From assembly GCA_001464495.1 (NCBI GenBank), contig LNDZ01000029.1:15455-79454 (forward strand): 64,000 nucleotides of DNA, in the 5' to 3' direction. Origin of the DNA: Betaproteobacteria bacterium Ga0074130 (GTDB lineage: Bacteria; Pseudomonadota; Gammaproteobacteria; Burkholderiales; Rhodocyclaceae). The notes beneath the pieces are model-generated. The model saw only the letters and a program-made list of their open reading frames with translations, ran no database searches and had not been told where the DNA came from. Shown piece by piece: positions 2,444-33,573 of this stretch. The translations under genes were made by a program, and so were the position numbers. How positions within the stretch are numbered: the stretch's first letter is position 1; every line of letters starts with the position of its first letter.

Positions 2444-4417
2444 ATGGCGTTTAACCTGAAACTGCCCTCACTCAACCTGCCCGGACAAACTCTCAAAGAC
2501 GAGGCCGATGCTCCTATTGCTATACAGAAGGTTGAAAAACAGAAGGTCCAGTTCAGCAAGCAGCTAAAGTTTTTCGGCAGCTTGTTTATCGTCATTCTGC
2601 TTGCAACAGCCGGTATCACTTATGTAAACAATCGGGCCGACTTGGCAGATGACGCACGGATACGTCTAGGCCACCAAATCAACGTTCAAGCCTATCAAAT
2701 CGCCAAGGCGGCAACACTCGCGCAAACGGGTGATATCAATGCGTTCCGGGAACTTAGTCAGCTTCGAAAAGACTTTTCGGCTGCGCTACAAACCGTCTCT
2801 AAGGGTGGTGAAGTGGATGGCATTCGTATTCGCCCAGCCGGTGAAACCGTGTCTCCTCAATTGAGCAAATTGCAAGACGAATGGAAGGTTGCTGATTCGC
2901 GTATCCAGGCACTGCTCGATCAGCAAAACGCCTACGTCGCGATTGGAAAGTTCTTGCTCGAAGGTGGTCGCAAAGGCGGCTGGAGTGGGCAAGGCGAACG
3001 CATCCTCCGTGAAGCGAGTCAACTCGCTAGCCCTACGCCAATGGATATTGCAACAGAGATGGCACTGGCCAAAGACTTGCGCATGCAGCTCGAATTCGTG
3101 GTTGGAAAGGGCGACAACAGTGATTTCGGTGCAAATGCAAAAACACTGCTCGCTGCTCTCCCCGCTGACATGGCTACCTTTGCTAAGGCACGCGATGGCG
3201 CATCAAAACTACTGGCAAATATCCTGCCGCTGACGGCAGCAACGGATACGCTGCTCAGCGTTTTTGAAGCACAGACTGACCAGCGTTCAATTCACGCCGC
3301 ACTCTTTGCTGTCTTCGGATCATTGGTGCTTGCCCTACTCGTGGTTGTGGTGAAAATCTTCAATGAAGAAGCGGCAGAACGAAACCAAGAATCTGAAAAT
3401 CTGCGACAACAGGCTGAAGCGGAACGTAATGCGTCACAGGACGCCATTCTTCGCTTGATGAATGAAATGGGCGACCTTGCTGACGGTGACTTGACAATCC
3501 GAGCCACTGTGACGGAAGACATTACGGGCGCGATTGCTGACTCGGTGAACTACACGATTGAAGAGCTCTCGGTGCTCGTTAAACGGATTAATGACGCGGC
3601 AACGCGAGTGGCGGCAGCCTCTGAAACCGCACAAAAAACGACTGATGAACTGCTCTCCGCAACGGAAACACAATCTGAAGAAATTCGTTCTGCCAACAGC
3701 TCCGTGCTGTCGATGGCAGAATCGATGACGAATGTATCGATCAATGCAAGTGAGTCTGCCCGTGTGGCACTGGTTTCGCTGGCCGCCGCAAAAAAGGGTT
3801 CGGCTGCTGTAACGAACTCAATCAAGGGCATGAACGAAATTCGTCAACAGATTCAGGAAACCTCAAAGCGGATTAAGCGTCTCGGCGAATCATCCCAGGA
3901 GATCGGTGAAATCGTGGAACTGATTTCAGACATTACCGAGCAAACCAACGTGCTGGCGCTTAACGCTGCTATTCAGGCTGCATCTGCAGGTGAAGCTGGT
4001 CGAGGCTTCACTGTGGTTGCAGAAGAAGTGCAACGACTGGCAGAGCGCTCAGCCGAGGCAACCAAGCAGATCGCAGCCATTGTGAAGACCATTCAGACCG
4101 ATACGCACGATGCGGTATCGGCAATGGAAAACTCCACCCAAAACGTGGTTGAAGGAGCACAGCTTTCCGATGCGGCTGGTCAGGCGCTGGAAGAAATTTC
4201 AAACGTGTCGCAGAATCTTGCCGAACTGATTGAATCAATTTCAGGCGATACCGAAAAGCAGGCGACGGTTGCAACCGAGGTTGCAACGCTTATGCAGAAC
4301 ATTCTGCAAATTACAGAACAAACTACTACCGGCACGCGTCAGACTGCCGTGTCGATCGGCGAACTCGCTGAACTCGCGAGCGAACTCAAGGGCTCGGTTG
4401 CTGGCTTCAAGGTGTGA
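2444..4417 (+). CDS. pilJ: Methyl-accepting chemotaxis protein PilJ (657 aa)
   Basis: It has an N-terminal TM segment, a periplasmic region, a second TM segment and a HAMP-like segment. The highly conserved MCP signalling hairpin is present: [48 protein letters not shown]. Confidence 0.85.
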
Positions 4418-17326: not shown

Positions 17327-18127
17327 TCACTCACGATTGGCCAGCAAGCGTCCAAGCAAATCGCTCACCACACTGGCCTCGAAAGGCTTGTCGCAAATGC
17401 CTGATACACCGGCTGCCTCAACCGCTGCCAGTCGGCTGGCATCGGCCTCGCTGGTCACCATCAGGATGGGTACATCCTTCTGCCAGCTGTGCTGCCGAAT
17501 ATGCTGGACCAAGGCCTGTCCATCCATTTCTGGCATGTTGTAATCCGTCACCACCAAATCGACCATTGTGCCGGCCAGCAACTCAACCGCCTTACGTCCA
17601 TTCTCGGCTTCAATAAAATTCGTGATGCCCAAATTTTCCAGCATGCGGCGCATGAAGCGGCGTGCACTACCACTGTCATCAACGAGCAGCACCTTAAGTT
17701 CTTCAGCGCGAAAATCTATCGATGTCGTGTGCTCAAGTGCCAGAAAATCGAGGGTGGTATCAAGCACCTTGCGAAGCTGTGCGGTCGTAAACGGCTTGGG
17801 CAGAAGCCCGCATATGCCGGCTTGACGAACAGGGTCTAAGGCTTGCGGTCGTGTCTCACTCGACACCAGAATGAAGGGGATACCGGCCAGATCGGTTTCC
17901 TCACGCATTGCCAATACAAGATCAAGACCAGACATGTCCGGCAGATAGAGCGCGCTCACTACCACTTCCGGGCGCACCTCGCGCATTTCCGCCAACGCAC
18001 CCCAGCCATTTTCAGCCGTGCGAATACGATCCATGCCCAACTCACGGAAAGCCTTGCTCACCACCTTGGCCTGCATGGCCGACGGCTCAACCAGAAGAAT
18101 ACTTGGATCAGCAAACAGGCTACTCAT
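17327..18127 (-). CDS. Tandem receiver-domain protein (N-terminal pseudo-receiver plus canonical CheY-like receiver), no output domain
   Basis: REC2 is canonical, with LLVDDS, LVVTDYNMPEMDG, MVTSE and CDKPF. REC1 reads LLVEPS and VVVSALYLPDMSG, so Ala sits where the phospho-acceptor Asp is expected, although LPKPF is kept. The gene lies between cobT and cobS. Confidence 0.75.
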   Translation of the reverse strand: MSSLFADPSILLVEPSAMQAKVVSKAFRELGMDRIRTAENGWGALAEMREVRPEVVVSALYLPDMSGLDLVLAMREETDLAGIPFILVSSETRPQALDPVRQAGICGLLPKPFTTAQLRKVLDTTLDFLALEHTTSIDFRAEELKVLLVDDSGSARRFMRRMLENLGITNFIEAENGRKAVELLAGTMVDLVVTDYNMPEMDGQALVQHIRQHSWQKDVPILMVTSEADASRLAAVEAAGVSGICDKPFEASVVSDLLGRLLANRE

Positions 18128-23694: not shown

Positions 23695-23807
23695 GGTGGA
23701 TTCCGGAAAATACTGCGCAAGCGCAAAGGCGCTATTGTACCGTGCGGCACCCCTGCGCCGGCCCCCTTGCTGACGGCCACCCGGTAACGGCAGGTATCAT
23801 TCACCCC

Positions 23808-24593
23808 ATGTCGCTCACCTCCACCAGCGCCTCGCCATTGCGCCCCGCTCTGTTCGCCCAGCTTGGCGGCGCACTCATTGTGTTTGCGCTGGCGTATCTG
23901 CTGCCGGTTACTTGGCTACGCCAGCCCTTAATACTCGCAGTGTTGCAAGGCCTGTGTGCCAGCGGCATCAGTTGGAAATTGGATGCGCCGCGCTGGTGGT
24001 GTCTGATTCATCTGCTATTCATGCCATTAGTTGTGATTGCCTTGGCGCTGCAGATTGCGCCGGGCTGGTATCTAGCAGCCTTTGTCCTGACCCTGCTGAT
24101 TTTCTGGCGCACCGACAAAAGCCGAGTGCCCCTGTATCTAAGCAATCAGGCTACGGCCATGGCCGTGGCAGACCTGCTGCCGACCAATGCAAACGTCATC
24201 GATATTGGCTGCGGCGACGGGCACCTGCTGCGCCGTCTGGCACTGACGCGGCCAGACTGTCTGTTCACCGGCATCGAGCATGCACCGGCGACTTGGCTGG
24301 TCGCTAGACTGCTGAATATGGGGCGCCGTAATGTCACCATCCGATATGGTGACTTTTGGCAACACTCGTTGAGCGGCTATGACACGGTCTATGCATTTCT
24401 CTCTCCCGCACCGATGCCAGCCCTATGGGACAAAGTTCAGGCCGAGCTGGGCAGCGGCAAGCGTTTGATCAGTAACAGCTTTCCCGTTCCAGACGCGCCT
24501 GCAGACCCGGTGATTGAGGTAGATGACCCGCGCCAGACCCAGCTTTATTGCTACACCATTGGGTTAAAAACCATCGCTAAGCCTCAGAACTGA
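23808..24593 (+). CDS. Membrane-anchored class I SAM-dependent methyltransferase
   Basis: There are about 3-4 N-terminal hydrophobic segments, followed by SAM motif I VIDIGCGDGHLL. I chose an internal ATG of ORF 23742..24593, so the start is uncertain. Confidence 0.55.
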   Translation: MSLTSTSASPLRPALFAQLGGALIVFALAYLLPVTWLRQPLILAVLQGLCASGISWKLDAPRWWCLIHLLFMPLVVIALALQIAPGWYLAAFVLTLLIFWRTDKSRVPLYLSNQATAMAVADLLPTNANVIDIGCGDGHLLRRLALTRPDCLFTGIEHAPATWLVARLLNMGRRNVTIRYGDFWQHSLSGYDTVYAFLSPAPMPALWDKVQAELGSGKRLISNSFPVPDAPADPVIEVDDPRQTQLYCYTIGLKTIAKPQN

Positions 24594-24735
24594 AGGACTT
24601 TTCTGGCTCAGCTCCTCCCCGTTTAGACAAACACCCTTTCCCCTGTCATTTCGGCGCATCGCCGTTTGCGCCGCTCGCCATAATTCAATCCAGAAAGCAC
24701 CCCAGCCAGACCATTCAGGGGTTCGCGGAGATCTT

Positions 24736-25449
24736 ATGGCAGACATTATTTGCATCATCGGTAACAAGGGCGGCACCGGCAAGACCACACTCTCACACAT
24801 GCTGTGTCAGGGTTTGGGGCTGCTCGGGCAACGCTCAGTCTGCGTCCTCACCGATACCGCGCGCGAACCGCTGAGCCCAGAAGGTCGCCGTTATCTGGTG
24901 GCCGATGCGCGCACCCGCGAAGCGCTGGCGAAAGTAACTGATAAGATCCGCTCCCTCAACTCATGGATGGGCGTGGTTGACGGCGGCGGTAACCGCACCG
25001 AGATGGACCGCAAGCTCTACAGTCTGGCTGATCTGGTGCTGCTGCCCTTCCGTGATTCGCATGAAGATATCCGTACCCTGATTCGTGACCTTGAGATGTT
25101 CCCGCGCGCCTACGCCATTCCAACCCAATGGCCGGTGATCCCATGGCAGCGTGACACAGCGGAACGTACGGTCGATGAGCTACTTGCGCCCTACCGCGAT
25201 CGCATCCTCATGCCCGTCAATGCATTCAATGCCACCAAGCTACTGTTGAAGAGCGAAATCGGCAATGACATTCCACCGGCCCTCGCCGATGCCTGCTGCA
25301 ATGTGGCTAAGCAGGTGCTCGACTTGCTGCAAATCCCGATCCAACAGGTCGAAGAAGTGCCGCGCGTGCTGCGCCCGGTAGCGCCTGCTACCCCTGTCGC
25401 GCGTCCGCACATGTCGCCTGTTCGTGAGTTGCAACCGGCGATGGCGTAA
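24736..25449 (+). CDS. ParA/MinD-family P-loop ATPase (orphan, 237 aa)
   Basis: The N-terminus has the deviant Walker A GNKGGTGKTT with the signature Lys, and VVDGGG is a Walker B-like segment. A GGAG lies 8 nt upstream of the ATG. No parB or parS is evident. Confidence 0.7.
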   Translation: MADIICIIGNKGGTGKTTLSHMLCQGLGLLGQRSVCVLTDTAREPLSPEGRRYLVADARTREALAKVTDKIRSLNSWMGVVDGGGNRTEMDRKLYSLADLVLLPFRDSHEDIRTLIRDLEMFPRAYAIPTQWPVIPWQRDTAERTVDELLAPYRDRILMPVNAFNATKLLLKSEIGNDIPPALADACCNVAKQVLDLLQIPIQQVEEVPRVLRPVAPATPVARPHMSPVRELQPAMA

Positions 25450-25730
25450 TGAGCGCCGGCACCCCGCCGCCCGCTGATCCGTTTGAAGCAGTCAAAGCCC
25501 TGTGGGGCAGCATGGGATTCGCCATGCCCGGCATGGTCGCACCCACGTTCGACAGCAATGAACTCGACAAGCGCATTGCCGACATGAAGGCCGTGGAAGG
25601 CTGGTTGCAGATGAACCTGAGTATGTTGCAAGCCACCATTCAGGGGCTAGAGATGCAGCGCAGCACATTGGCTACAATGCGGGCCTCGATGCAGGCTGCA
25701 CCGCATAGCAAAACACCCGAACAAGAATGA
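25449..25730 (+). CDS. Small coiled-coil protein (93 aa), possibly related to the N-terminal region of PhaM-family proteins
   Basis: The start overlaps the ParA-like stop (TAATG). A Pro/Gly-rich N-terminus is followed by a heptad-like helix, ELDKRIADMKAVEGWLQMNLSMLQATIQGLEMQRSTLATM. The PhaM resemblance rests on my memory of a WVAPT...KRI..LK.V..WL...TIQALEVQ..TL motif and is not verified. Confidence 0.5.
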   Translation: MSAGTPPPADPFEAVKALWGSMGFAMPGMVAPTFDSNELDKRIADMKAVEGWLQMNLSMLQATIQGLEMQRSTLATMRASMQAAPHSKTPEQE

Positions 25731-26503
25731 CACTTCCCAATGATGAACTCGCTGGACTGGCTGATGCTGCCGTCCAGAAGGAAGCGGCCGGTCTGGCCCA
25801 AGATGGTTTTATCCGCATTTTCCGGCTGCTCGCCGAAGGCGACGAAGCCGCCGCCGAACTCGGTCTATCAGTCATCGAAGCCCGGGCACGCGACTGGGCC
25901 ATGCAAGGGAGCAGTGAAGAAGCCAATACCCTCCGCCTCGCGCTGCTGATCAGTGGCCTTGATCAATGGGGCTTGGCCTGGACTCAGGCTTTCGGGCTAG
26001 CCGCCCTGCCCGGCTTAACCACACTGCTGGGCAATCTGCGCAACCCGCTCGACGCGCAGGCCAGCGCACGTTTTGAACAGCAGTTCGCGGCGATTGAAGC
26101 GCGTGAAGACAACGCCATTGATTTCAAGATCGAGTTACGCCGCGGCATTCACCTCGCGCTCTGGCATGCCATGGTGGCGTGTGATGAGCGCGAACCGGCA
26201 GAACGTTTGCTGCAACACCTCGGCAGCATGATGCGCGTGCTTACGGAAATGATGCCGACCTATGGGTGGCGCTTGGTTGCCGATGCGCTGGCGCATATCC
26301 AGCTGCGCTGCCTTGATCCAAATTTCGCTGCTGACCCTGAGCACAGCTCGTTGGCGCAGGAAACCACGCAGGGCTTGTTCACCGCGCTGAATCATTCCCT
26401 GCCGGCCGACATGGCTAAGCAGGTGATGGCACAGGCCACGCAGGTGGTGCTCGCTTATCAACGCGCGCAGCAACAGCAAGCGGCACAGGCTGATCCCACC
26501 TAA
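25727..26503 (+). CDS. Hypothetical protein (258 aa, Ala/Leu-rich and probably helical), third gene of the ParA-like operon
   Basis: It has an ATGA overlap with the preceding gene. I recognise no family motif. It is followed by a strong hairpin. Confidence 0.5.
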   Translation: MTLPNDELAGLADAAVQKEAAGLAQDGFIRIFRLLAEGDEAAAELGLSVIEARARDWAMQGSSEEANTLRLALLISGLDQWGLAWTQAFGLAALPGLTTLLGNLRNPLDAQASARFEQQFAAIEAREDNAIDFKIELRRGIHLALWHAMVACDEREPAERLLQHLGSMMRVLTEMMPTYGWRLVADALAHIQLRCLDPNFAADPEHSSLAQETTQGLFTALNHSLPADMAKQVMAQATQVVLAYQRAQQQQAAQADPT

Positions 26504-26541: not shown

Positions 26542-26566
26542 ATCGAGCCGGCAGGGCCGGCTCGAT
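26542..26566. terminator. Hairpin between convergent genes (ParA-like operon and deaD)
   Basis: The sequence is atcgagccgg-caggg-ccggctcgat, a 10-11 bp perfect stem. It lies 39 nt after the + strand stop and 22 nt after the - strand stop. U-tracts are weak. Confidence 0.5.
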
Positions 26567-30931: not shown

Positions 30932-31039
30932 TCTATGCGCTCTTGGCGCATTCGCCACGAAGGTGCGCCAGCGAACAGATCACATCTCATCCCCCCTGCA
31001 TCCTGCTCATTTGGCCCCCACCGTTATACGGAGAACCCC

Positions 31040-31864
31040 ATGAGCAGCATCAAGATGAAGGACGGCACGCATATCCACTACAAAGACTGGGGCAACGGCC
31101 CGGTGGTGATCTTCAGCCACGGCTGGCCGCTCAATGCAGACAGCTGGGAATCGCAGATGTTTCATCTCGCGTCCAACGGCTATCGCTGCATTGCCCATGA
31201 TCGACGTGGGCATGGTCGCTCTGACCAGCCTTGGCACGGCAATGACATGGATACCTATGCAGACGATCTAGCCTGCATCATCGACACGCTGGGCGTTGAT
31301 AAGGTCATCCTTGTTGGCTTCTCAGCTGGTGGTGGCGAGGTCGCTCGCTATGTCGGTCGCCACGGCACACGACACGTCAGCAAGATTGTGCTGATCGCCT
31401 CCGTCCCACCCCTGATGCTGCGCACGCCAGACAACCCAGAGGGTCTGCCACGTGAGCGCTATGACGGTAATCGTCTCGCCACCCTCACCGATCGCTCACA
31501 GCTGTACCGCGACATTGCCAGCGGCCCGTTCTATGGCGCCGATCAGGAAGGTGCGGAGGTTTCACAAGGCATGATCGATGCCTTCTGGCGGCAGGGCATG
31601 CAAGCCGGTTTGAAGAACACGTATGACTGCATCGCCGCGTTTTCGGAAACCAACTTCACAGAAGACCTGAAGAAGTTTGATGTCCCAACCCTGCTGATCC
31701 ATGGCGACTTCGATCAGATTGTGCCCATCAGCACCTCATCACAACGGGCAGCCAAGCTGATCCCGAACGCGACCCTGATGGTCTATCCCGGCGGGCCGCA
31801 TGGCTTACTGGAGACGCACAAGACGCAGCTCAATCACGACCTGCTGACCTTCATCCAGCTTTAG
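31040..31864 (+). CDS. Alpha/beta hydrolase (non-haem haloperoxidase/arylesterase-like)
   Basis: The N-terminus reads [24 protein letters not shown]. The nucleophile elbow is GFSAGG, and HGDFDQIVP and PHGL lie near the C-terminus. A GGAGA RBS lies upstream of the ATG at 31040. Confidence 0.7.
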
Positions 31865-32801: not shown

Positions 32802-33389
32802 TTAGCCTGCGTCGCCCCCTGACACGTAGTTTTTTTCGCCATGCAGGTAGCGCGCCAGCCACTCCAGCAGGGCAATAGCATCGCCGAAGGTCATAAAGCC
32901 TTCGCGCCCGGCATCTGCAAACAGCGCCTTGCCGTCCAGCGATGCATTGATCACTAGACCATCAAACGCAGCCACAGGCATGTGGCCGGGCGCGATGCGG
33001 AAGGTATTGGCATTGAGAATGGCATCCACGGCCCGCCCCAGAAACTGAATCTCCGGCGTGCGCATTGATGCCATGTCGTGCTCTCTCAAAAACAAGCCCA
33101 CTGCCAGTAGGGCGTTGCTCACGATCACGCGCAAACACTCTGCCTTTTCGTAAGGCAGTGCGGGCAAGGCGTCATCGCTGGACTCTTCCGCAACGATATT
33201 GCCGCCAGAGCCTGTCTTGACGACCTGCAGCTTGCGCTCAAACAGCTGCCCGGTCATGCGCTGCAGAGCGGCATCACCATTATCAAAAGCTCTTGAAACC
33301 GCCAGTAGCGTAACTGGCAGGCTACGTACTTGTGCTGCAATCAGATTTGCTGCGAGAACAGATGCCTTTTCGCCGTGCGTTTTGCTCAT
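32802..33389 (-). CDS. Hypothetical protein (195 aa)
   Basis: An internal ATG at 33389 in ORF 32802..33491 is preceded by GAGGAG. The product is MSKTHGEKASVLAANLIAAQ.... I see no recognisable motif, signal peptide or TM segment. Confidence 0.5.
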   Translation of the reverse strand: MSKTHGEKASVLAANLIAAQVRSLPVTLLAVSRAFDNGDAALQRMTGQLFERKLQVVKTGSGGNIVAEESSDDALPALPYEKAECLRVIVSNALLAVGLFLREHDMASMRTPEIQFLGRAVDAILNANTFRIAPGHMPVAAFDGLVINASLDGKALFADAGREGFMTFGDAIALLEWLARYLHGEKNYVSGGDAG

Positions 33390-33573
33390 GTCACACTCCT
33401 CTGTCGTCAGATAAGCGCTAGCCCCACAGAATACGGGCTGGCTCGTGCGCTGTTTGCAAGCAGTAGCGTTCGCTGCGCTACCCGGTTTCATTATGGGTGG
33501 CAGCGGACGAAAAGGCGAATCAAGTCTGCGCCTGACGGCCTCTCATCATGTGTTGCGTCTGCACTGGCGGGAC

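Follow-up and report, generated by a model that had tools for sequence, protein, structure and literature searches.

A ParA-like ATPase gene overlapping a truncated PhaM-family gene in Rhodocyclaceae: a candidate system for positioning polyhydroxybutyrate granules

Three overlapping genes, one with a PhaM domain

We analysed a 64,000-nt stretch of DNA from Betaproteobacteria bacterium Ga0074130, a member of the Rhodocyclaceae (contig LNDZ01000029.1, positions 15,455 to 79,454 of the forward strand; hereafter the window), and focused on three overlapping open reading frames (ORFs) on its plus strand. The first encodes an orphan ParA-like ATPase (ORF1), the second a small protein with a PhaM-family domain (ORF2) and the third a conserved protein that we call P3 (Table 1). 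A reading of the locus made from the sequence alone (the sequence-only reading) had already described three coupled genes here, and both overlaps were found as it placed them: ORF1 and ORF2 share 1 nt (TAATG at 25447-25451), and ORF2 and P3 share 4 nt (ATGA at 25727-25730). At E ≤ 1e-3, homology searches returned 1462, 867 and 622 homologues of ORF1, ORF2 and P3, respectively, and we conclude from these that all three ORFs are real genes. We compared the window with six species-level relatives, all Rhodocyclaceae (L003-L008; 73-98% protein identity to the window), which together with the window are referred to below as the window clade. The 1-nt overlap of ParA stop and PhaM start is kept in five of the six relatives (6/7 with the window included), and the ATGA overlap of PhaM stop and P3 start is kept in all six (7/7). 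Because they persist among relatives although protein identity drops to about 73-85%, the overlaps are not due to chance. The earlier description of a small, partner-sized protein translationally coupled to the ATPase is supported.

The small protein itself is not the anonymous coiled-coil protein that it had been taken for. ORF2 scored 97.3 bits against the NCBIfam PhaM family NF043076 (cut-off 38; E 2.6e-28), with all 52 model positions matched, and a 91-aa homologue that is 73% identical to it (P0147) carries the NCBI name 'PhaM family'. PhaM of Cupriavidus necator tethers polyhydroxybutyrate (PHB) granules to the nucleoid, governs how many there are and how they are inherited, and is also an activator of the synthase PhaC1 (PMC3556143; PMC13052382). 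It binds the granules through its N-terminus and DNA through its histone-like C-terminus (PMC13052382). Since ORF2 holds the whole PhaM domain, the PHB granule or PhaC complex becomes an obvious candidate for the cargo that the sequence-only reading had left unnamed.

Like PhaM of C. necator (Ralstonia eutropha) H16, ORF2 has a complete PhaM-family domain. Unlike it, ORF2 has 93 rather than about 260 residues, terminates with ...AAPHSKTPEQE, and lacks the Lys/Ala/Pro-rich, histone-like C-terminal region with which the characterised protein binds DNA. The 265-aa long PhaM of Comamonas has such a Lys/Ala/Pro-rich tail (KAKAKSPVARKPAAKAPAGKAAAP...KRAAAKKP). Most PhaM-like proteins of the Rhodocyclaceae are of intermediate length (120-160 aa) and carry an NPF..WPW motif followed by a short basic tail. 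Beyond the NCBIfam domain, the conserved form of this motif reads NPF(x5-7)WPW(N)(x)M (for example in P0160, P0165, P0183 and L083 9533-9988), and the short basic C-termini end in, for example, KKPKKQ or RRKP. Both the motif and the tail are missing from the window clade, where the PhaM-like protein is reduced to the N-terminal ~90 residues, and from L017.

Table 1. Features of the locus (window coordinates)
Feature	Position	Strand	Description
Membrane-anchored class I S-adenosylmethionine-dependent methyltransferase (MT)	23742..24593	+	upstream neighbour of the ParA-like gene
Shine-Dalgarno GGAG	24727..24730	+	5 nt ahead of the ParA-like ATG; read from sequence
ParA-like ORF1	24736..25449	+	237 aa; orphan ParA/MinD-family P-loop ATPase
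Deviant Walker A GNKGGTGKTT, residues 9-18	24760..24789	+	signature Lys11, P-loop Lys16
PhaM-like ORF2	25449..25730	+	93 aa; truncated PhaM-family N-terminal-domain protein
PhaM domain proper, residues 28-79	25530..25685	+	NF043076 match
P3 (ORF3)	25727..26503	+	258 aa; conserved all-alpha protein, function unassigned by any family match
GC-rich hairpin	26542..26566	.	11-bp stem, 3-nt loop; between convergent P3 and deaD

An orphan ParA-like ATPase with relatives on mobile DNA

ORF1 consists of a core of ~200 aa followed by a Pro/Ala-rich variable tail of ~35 aa. The deviant Walker A motif is invariant in 20 aligned family members, and so are D40 (VLTD) and D82 (VVDGGG), which from family knowledge we take to be the Switch I/Walker A' and Walker B aspartates, respectively. 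In profile searches, Pfam CbiA was barely exceeded (25.7 against a gathering score of 25.4). The NCBIfam ParA_partition equivalog NF041546 gave 37.3 bits against a cut-off of 180, with residues 4-114 alone aligning, and the models for MinD (TIGR01968; 17 bits against 213), BcsQ (16 against 158) and RepA (15 against 348) scored far below their cut-offs. The MipZ match (19.7 against 20.7) was limited to a 52-residue stretch, and no FlhG/FleN model matched. We found no MinD-type C-terminal amphipathic helix in ORF1, the C-terminus being the variable tail, modelled at a predicted local distance difference test score (pLDDT) below 50.

A sequence search of the PDB aligned the P-loop region alone, so a fold search was needed to place ORF1. 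The AlphaFold 2 (AF2) model (pLDDT 72.5) matched Soj, ParF, FleN, BcsQ, MinD and McdA with a Foldseek probability of 1.00, at template modelling (TM) scores of 0.55-0.72 and 14-20% identity (E 1e-8 for Soj, 2bek); FleN, at 16-18% identity, was a match of fold alone. By its motifs and its predicted fold, ORF1 is a member of the ParA/MinD family, with scores short of every curated subfamily cut-off. This agrees with the earlier recognition of a ParA/MinD ATPase with the signature Lys. The ATPase also clusters with none of the systems that the sequence-only reading had named as ones that would refute it (BcsQ, FlhG, Soj-type partition). Since ORF1 lies under the cut-off of every specific ParA/MinD-type model that matched, some other cargo is needed for it.

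The best structural match by size and TM score was ParF (4e09; TM 0.72, root-mean-square deviation 3.7 Å) of the ParF/ParG system of TP228, one of the small type Ib plasmid ParAs, which share with ORF1 a core of ~200 aa. Unlike this agreement in fold, identity to ParF is only 14-16%. The family around ORF1 is small and sharply bounded, with 218 representatives among 1.84 billion sequences at E ≤ 1e-3 and 20 at 1e-30. Across the Rhodocyclaceae, ORF1 is 70-86% identical, which exceeds the identity of MT, PhaM and P3, and this level of conservation together with the invariant catalytic residues indicates strong purifying selection.

More distant relatives of ORF1 (33-45% identity) carry its distinctive motifs DGGGNR...ADLVLLPFRDS.ED.R...LP.A..IP..WP and sit on plasmids and mobile elements. 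One lies within a toxin-antitoxin/integrase islet (L169), one on a TrwC-relaxase element that also has a ParB-like gene (L170), two on resolvase contigs (L171, L172), and further ones on plasmids of Pseudomonas syringae, Burkholderia, Robbsia and others. Directly upstream of the ATPase gene in L169 (1936-2286) and L170 (5654-6004), and overlapping its start, is a gene for a 116-aa protein with an Arg-rich N-terminal RRRGRPS motif followed by a ribbon-helix-helix (RHH)-like strand; on pFKN (L174), an 88-aa ORF (3681-3947) precedes the ATPase. The relatives on plasmids and integrative and conjugative elements (ICEs) thus resemble ParF/ParG in having, in two cases, a small RHH-like partner. Among the plasmid and mobile-element relatives that we examined, the partner is encoded upstream of the ATPase and not downstream. 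Taken by themselves, they look like an undescribed small partition cassette with the order partner-then-ATPase, and all are annotated as 'hypothetical'.

Because the nearest outgroups reside on mobile DNA, several of them with a small upstream partner, the chromosomal clade of ORF1 looks like a domesticated plasmid- or ICE-type small ParA that has shed its centromere-binding partner. The chromosomal clade has neither an RHH partner nor centromere-like repeats, and with the RHH-like partner missing, a replacement adaptor is expected. In the window, the locus is flanked by housekeeping genes of the chromosome (YchF, GluQRS, ClsB, a DeaD-type helicase, an HI0933-like flavoprotein and YlqF), the helicase being named for its best NCBIfam match, which is below the cut-off. 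No parS-like site with up to three mismatches was found in the 64 kb, no ParB- or RHH-type protein was present among the annotated neighbours, and a repeat search of the chromosomal locus yielded nothing beyond chance two-copy matches. These results support the earlier view of ORF1 as an orphan ATPase in a chromosomal setting and not on a plasmid.

The same outgroups allow another explanation, that the ParA-like gene was left behind by the partition system of an integrated plasmid or ICE and either has no function or acts on DNA, such as a chromosome region, instead of on a protein cargo. We consider this very unlikely. The sequence is 70-86% identical across a bacterial family, and its catalytic residues are all invariant. 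Neither an integrase or relaxase nor an RHH or ParB partner or parS lies nearby, and the gene occupies a fixed place on the chromosome among housekeeping genes.

Gene order in the Rhodocyclaceae and the junction with P3

We assessed the neighbourhood of both genes with two scans. A PhaM-anchored genome scan found a relative in 560 species, of which the best 80 loci were kept, all from Rhodocyclaceae; the genomes closest to the window were uncultured members of this family. A ParA-anchored metagenome scan returned 385 relatives, from which 80 loci were kept. One Comamonas locus (Comamonadaceae) served as the comparison from outside the family. The order in the Rhodocyclaceae is IOR(+), MT(+), ParA(+), a LuxR-type response regulator (RR)(−) with or without a histidine kinase (HK)(+), PhaM(+), FIST(+) and an AEC transporter(−), with ParA, the regulators and FIST varying in presence. 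Wherever the locus reaches far enough, MT lies immediately upstream of ParA, except in L045, L070 and L126, and it holds the same position in genomes that lack ParA. In these ParA-less loci, the next gene after MT or IOR is HK, RR or PhaM.

From the side of the ATPase, 26 ParA-anchored loci extended 7 kb or more downstream, and in 23 of these a PhaM gene follows on the same strand, at a distance of 88 bp to 6.2 kb (median ~3 kb). From the side of PhaM, ~25 of the 80 loci have ParA, ~37 are clearly without it and 18 did not resolve. ParA directly adjoins PhaM in at least three groups, namely the window clade, the Niveibacterium group (L001, L087-L089) and a group formed by L014, L157, L164 and L165. 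The window clade has lost the LuxR-type regulator between the two genes. PhaM-like proteins shorter than 95 aa and without a tail are confined to loci that contain ParA (the window clade and L017).

Two observations concern the neighbours of PhaM. A FIST gene lies directly downstream of PhaM in Comamonas (L173, 6884-7681 and 7788-9080), and the pairing recurs in many Rhodocyclaceae loci, such as L001 (6468-7565), L023, L025, L041, L050, L061, L087, L093, L096 and L097; it is absent from the window. Because the pairing spans family boundaries, the FIST-domain protein may be a real functional partner of PhaM. A LuxR-type RR gene divergent from the PhaM-like gene, usually accompanied by a dCache HK and present in most Rhodocyclaceae (L083 8835-9470, minus strand; L085 4151-6858; most of L010-L082), may encode a dedicated regulator of phaM-like expression.

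Next to the PhaM-like gene of the window lies P3, for which we found no match in Pfam, NCBIfam or PADLOC, and whose 622 homologues are all annotated as 'hypothetical'. The AF2 model of P3 is all-alpha with 12 helices at a pLDDT of 91, and a search of PDB folds gave no match (best E 0.028, TM at most 0.31). P3 is a widespread protein of Rhodocyclaceae type, confidently folded and without a detectable relative in PDB, Pfam or NCBIfam.

The sequence-only reading had proposed that the three genes form a module and had suggested co-occurrence of the trio as a check. The part concerning P3 did not hold. A tblastn search of the 80 PhaM-anchored loci located P3 close to PhaM in only the six nearest genomes and in none of the other 74, so that the trio was not seen outside the window clade. 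For ParA and PhaM themselves the outcome was mixed (23/26 from one side, ~25/62 from the other). In three other sampled lineages, P3 homologues are stand-alone genes with varying neighbours (deaD, YaeQ, DUF4126). In one of these, Sterolibacteriaceae MAG5, P3 and deaD converge and the next genes, HI0933-like and GTPase, are those of the window's right flank; in the other two lineages the neighbours of P3 are different again. P3 is therefore coupled to the PhaM-like gene in the window clade only, and the three-gene module is specific to that clade rather than a conserved unit.

The window clade represents the junction of two blocks, in which MT-ParA-PhaM has been placed between ychF and P3-deaD. 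At the breakpoint the PhaM-like gene lost its 3' half, and the conserved ATGA overlap with P3 is now found in its place. The ancestral block is broken on both sides, yet MT, ParA and the N-terminal domain of PhaM were kept together.

The sequence-only reading might still hold if restricted to the window clade, where the trio would work together with P3 as a recruit, for instance contacting the cargo, nucleoid or ATPase in place of the C-terminal half that PhaM has lost. The PhaM/P3 overlap is conserved in all seven clade genomes, the fusion to P3 exactly matches the disappearance of the PhaM WPW motif and basic tail, and P3 is well folded and helical-repeat-like, a fold typical of protein-protein scaffolds. 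We nevertheless regard recruitment as unlikely. P3 stands alone, away from ParA and PhaM, in the three other sampled lineages, where at 53-57% identity it presumably has the same job. The right flank of the window (deaD, HI0933-like, YlqF) matches the native block of P3, so that passive juxtaposition is the simplest account. Under this account, P3 would be a gene of the adjacent housekeeping block that rearrangement fused into the transcription unit, and would not be needed for the mechanism proposed below.

PHB granules as a candidate cargo

Positioning a cargo on the nucleoid by means of an adaptor is the task of ParA-type ATPases. By analogy with McdAB, we tentatively favour a reading in which ORF1 and the PhaM-like adaptor place PHB granules on the nucleoid, a proposal that we consider quite possible though short of probable. 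As in ParA, Soj and McdA, the ATPase would dimerise with ATP and bind chromosomal DNA non-specifically. The PhaM-like protein would sit on the PhaC synthase or nascent granule by means of its N-terminal domain, a role known for PhaM of C. necator, and would bridge the granule to DNA-bound ParA and stimulate its ATPase activity. Granules might thereby climb ParA gradients, spread through the cell and be shared between daughter cells. In the window clade, where the PhaM-like protein has no basic tail, ParA would be the sole route to the nucleoid. The ATPase itself would descend from a plasmid- or ICE-type small ParA that lost its RHH-type centromere-binding partner.

Several observations favour such a functional link. 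PhaM is the only neighbour with a known job of positioning a body on the nucleoid. The ATPase has lost its ancestral partner and yet is very strongly constrained. ParA and PhaM survived the rearrangement in the window clade together, with a stop/start overlap that evolved or was kept, and the confinement of tail-less PhaM-like proteins to ParA-containing loci points in the same direction.

The following observations weigh against the link. About 37 of the 62 resolved PhaM loci (~60%), for example those of Azonexus and Dechloromonas types, have no ParA at the site, so PhaM works without ParA. Most ParA loci have an opposite-strand LuxR-type RR, often with an HK, between ParA and PhaM, and the two genes are thus not co-transcribed there. 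As a conserved operon, then, the ParA-PhaM pair did not stand up. Three loci (L101, L139, L156) keep MT and IOR with ParA, but have no PhaM within 8 kb (in L156, none within 7.7 kb downstream). The Comamonas locus with the long PhaM has FIST alongside, but neither ParA nor MT. ParA and PhaM are no better kept in proximity than the IOR, MT and transporter genes of the same block, and with all loci coming from one family with conserved synteny, their proximity may reflect inherited gene order. The neighbourhood signal alone is no stronger than the background of synteny within the family. The charge of PhaM tails did not differ significantly between loci with and without ParA (Mann-Whitney p about 0.2), a comparison in which some loci scored as 'no ParA' are probably just short upstream, ParA presence having been recounted by gene order. 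Apart from the two tail-less lineages, the PhaM tails show no sign of compensation. Finally, we found no phasin-like sequence in the 64-kb window.

In the main rival explanation, ParA serves another cargo or partner, tied for example to the membrane MT or to an envelope or signalling complex. Its proximity to PhaM would then be inherited, the PhaM-like protein would act alone as a PhaC activator or granule regulator, and the overlap would be a by-product of deletion or rearrangement. We regard this as a serious possibility, if on the doubtful side. It draws on the position of MT directly upstream in nearly all ParA loci, including the three that lack PhaM, as well as on the frequent absence of ParA from PhaM loci, the interposed regulator and the indifference of PhaM tails to the presence of ParA. 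However, MT persists without ParA and hence does not need it, and the gap between MT and ParA (~100-190 bp) is so tiny a target for rearrangement that little can be concluded from their lasting adjacency. None of the other neighbours codes for part of a structure that could be positioned, and another cargo would leave both the conserved overlap and the co-translocation of ParA with PhaM in the window clade unexplained. MT is probably outside the mechanism. In two of the loci that lack PhaM (L101 8800-15630, L139 8852-16016), we observed IOR-MT-ParA followed by a PAS-MCP chemoreceptor gene and/or the ccm operon for cytochrome c maturation.

We compared the proposed system with known ones. It is like McdA/McdB of carboxysomes in combining a ParA-type ATPase with a small adaptor for the cargo, and the logic proposed from the genomic evidence would be the same Brownian ratchet on the nucleoid. 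Unlike McdB, ORF2 would serve a PHB granule and has no sequence relation to that protein, and McdA matched ORF1 only as a generic fold (6non, 19-20% identity). The chemoreceptor-array systems ParC/ParP and PpfA/TlpT likewise rely on orphan ATPases of ParA type, encoded on the chromosome, and on a dedicated adaptor through which a protein cargo is positioned; unlike those, the present locus has no chemotaxis genes, and we found no family-level match to them. PhaF of Pseudomonas putida and PhaH of Caulobacter crescentus perform the cellular task proposed here, as single proteins that tether polyhydroxyalkanoate (PHA) granules to the nucleoid (PMC13052382). Neither is related in sequence to ORF1 or ORF2, and both contact DNA directly, without an ATPase.

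In the literature searched, we found no publication linking a ParA-type ATPase to PhaM or to PHB granules. A 2025 review names the spacing component and the ATP-dependence of PHB granule positioning as unknown (PMC13052382). The known granule tethers (PhaM, PhaF, PhaH) bind DNA directly, and a ParA-type ATPase beside a PhaM-domain gene offers a concrete candidate, accessible in the cultivable Rhodocyclaceae Sulfuricystis multivorans, Sulfurisoma sediminicola and Niveibacterium umoris. Judged by sequence, each protein alone is a new member of a known family, and what would be new is the pairing of ParA with PhaM, as a variant of ParA-based cargo positioning. In its fullest form, the proposal is that ORF1 may be the first ParA/MinD-family ATPase dedicated to PHB granules, a domesticated, plasmid-derived ParA with a PhaM-domain adaptor that would drive spacing and inheritance with ATP and on which the window clade would depend entirely; we put this forward with some doubt. 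If true, PHB granules would be a new class of cargo for the ParA/MinD positioning family, and the system would provide an example of a plasmid partition ATPase domesticated for organelle positioning. PHB-accumulating Rhodocyclaceae are relevant to wastewater treatment and bioplastic production, where the number and size of granules matter in practice. Even if ParA and PhaM turn out to be unconnected, the analysis still defines a small, sharply bounded and highly conserved clade of orphan ParA proteins.

Additional features of the window were recorded. The hairpin downstream of P3 is present as first described; the 87 nt around it have a folding energy of −40 kcal/mol (z = −3.2 relative to shuffled sequences). 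No T-run follows it on either strand, and the terminator scan made no call there. The scan called no canonical terminator or promoter, and no Rfam RNA families were found in the window. MT matched Pfam methyltransferase domains weakly, in all cases below the cut-offs. Its translation begins with ~120 hydrophobic residues containing several predicted membrane helices, and it may start at either of two codons (GTG at 23742 or ATG at 23808). We also considered a defence system, since PADLOC matched MT to mad2 (36.8 bits) and ParA to mad8 (16 bits). We judged these to be generic methyltransferase and P-loop similarities, and the housekeeping gene context disfavours such a role. An alpha/beta hydrolase encoded at 30935-31864 (+) scored 74 bits against NF050089, the model for intracellular short-chain-length PHA depolymerase (cut-off 300), a resemblance that is probably generic to the fold. 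A 229-aa ORF at 32802-33491 (−) had no Pfam match, and the translation of 17327-18127 (−) suggests two tandem receiver-like domains.

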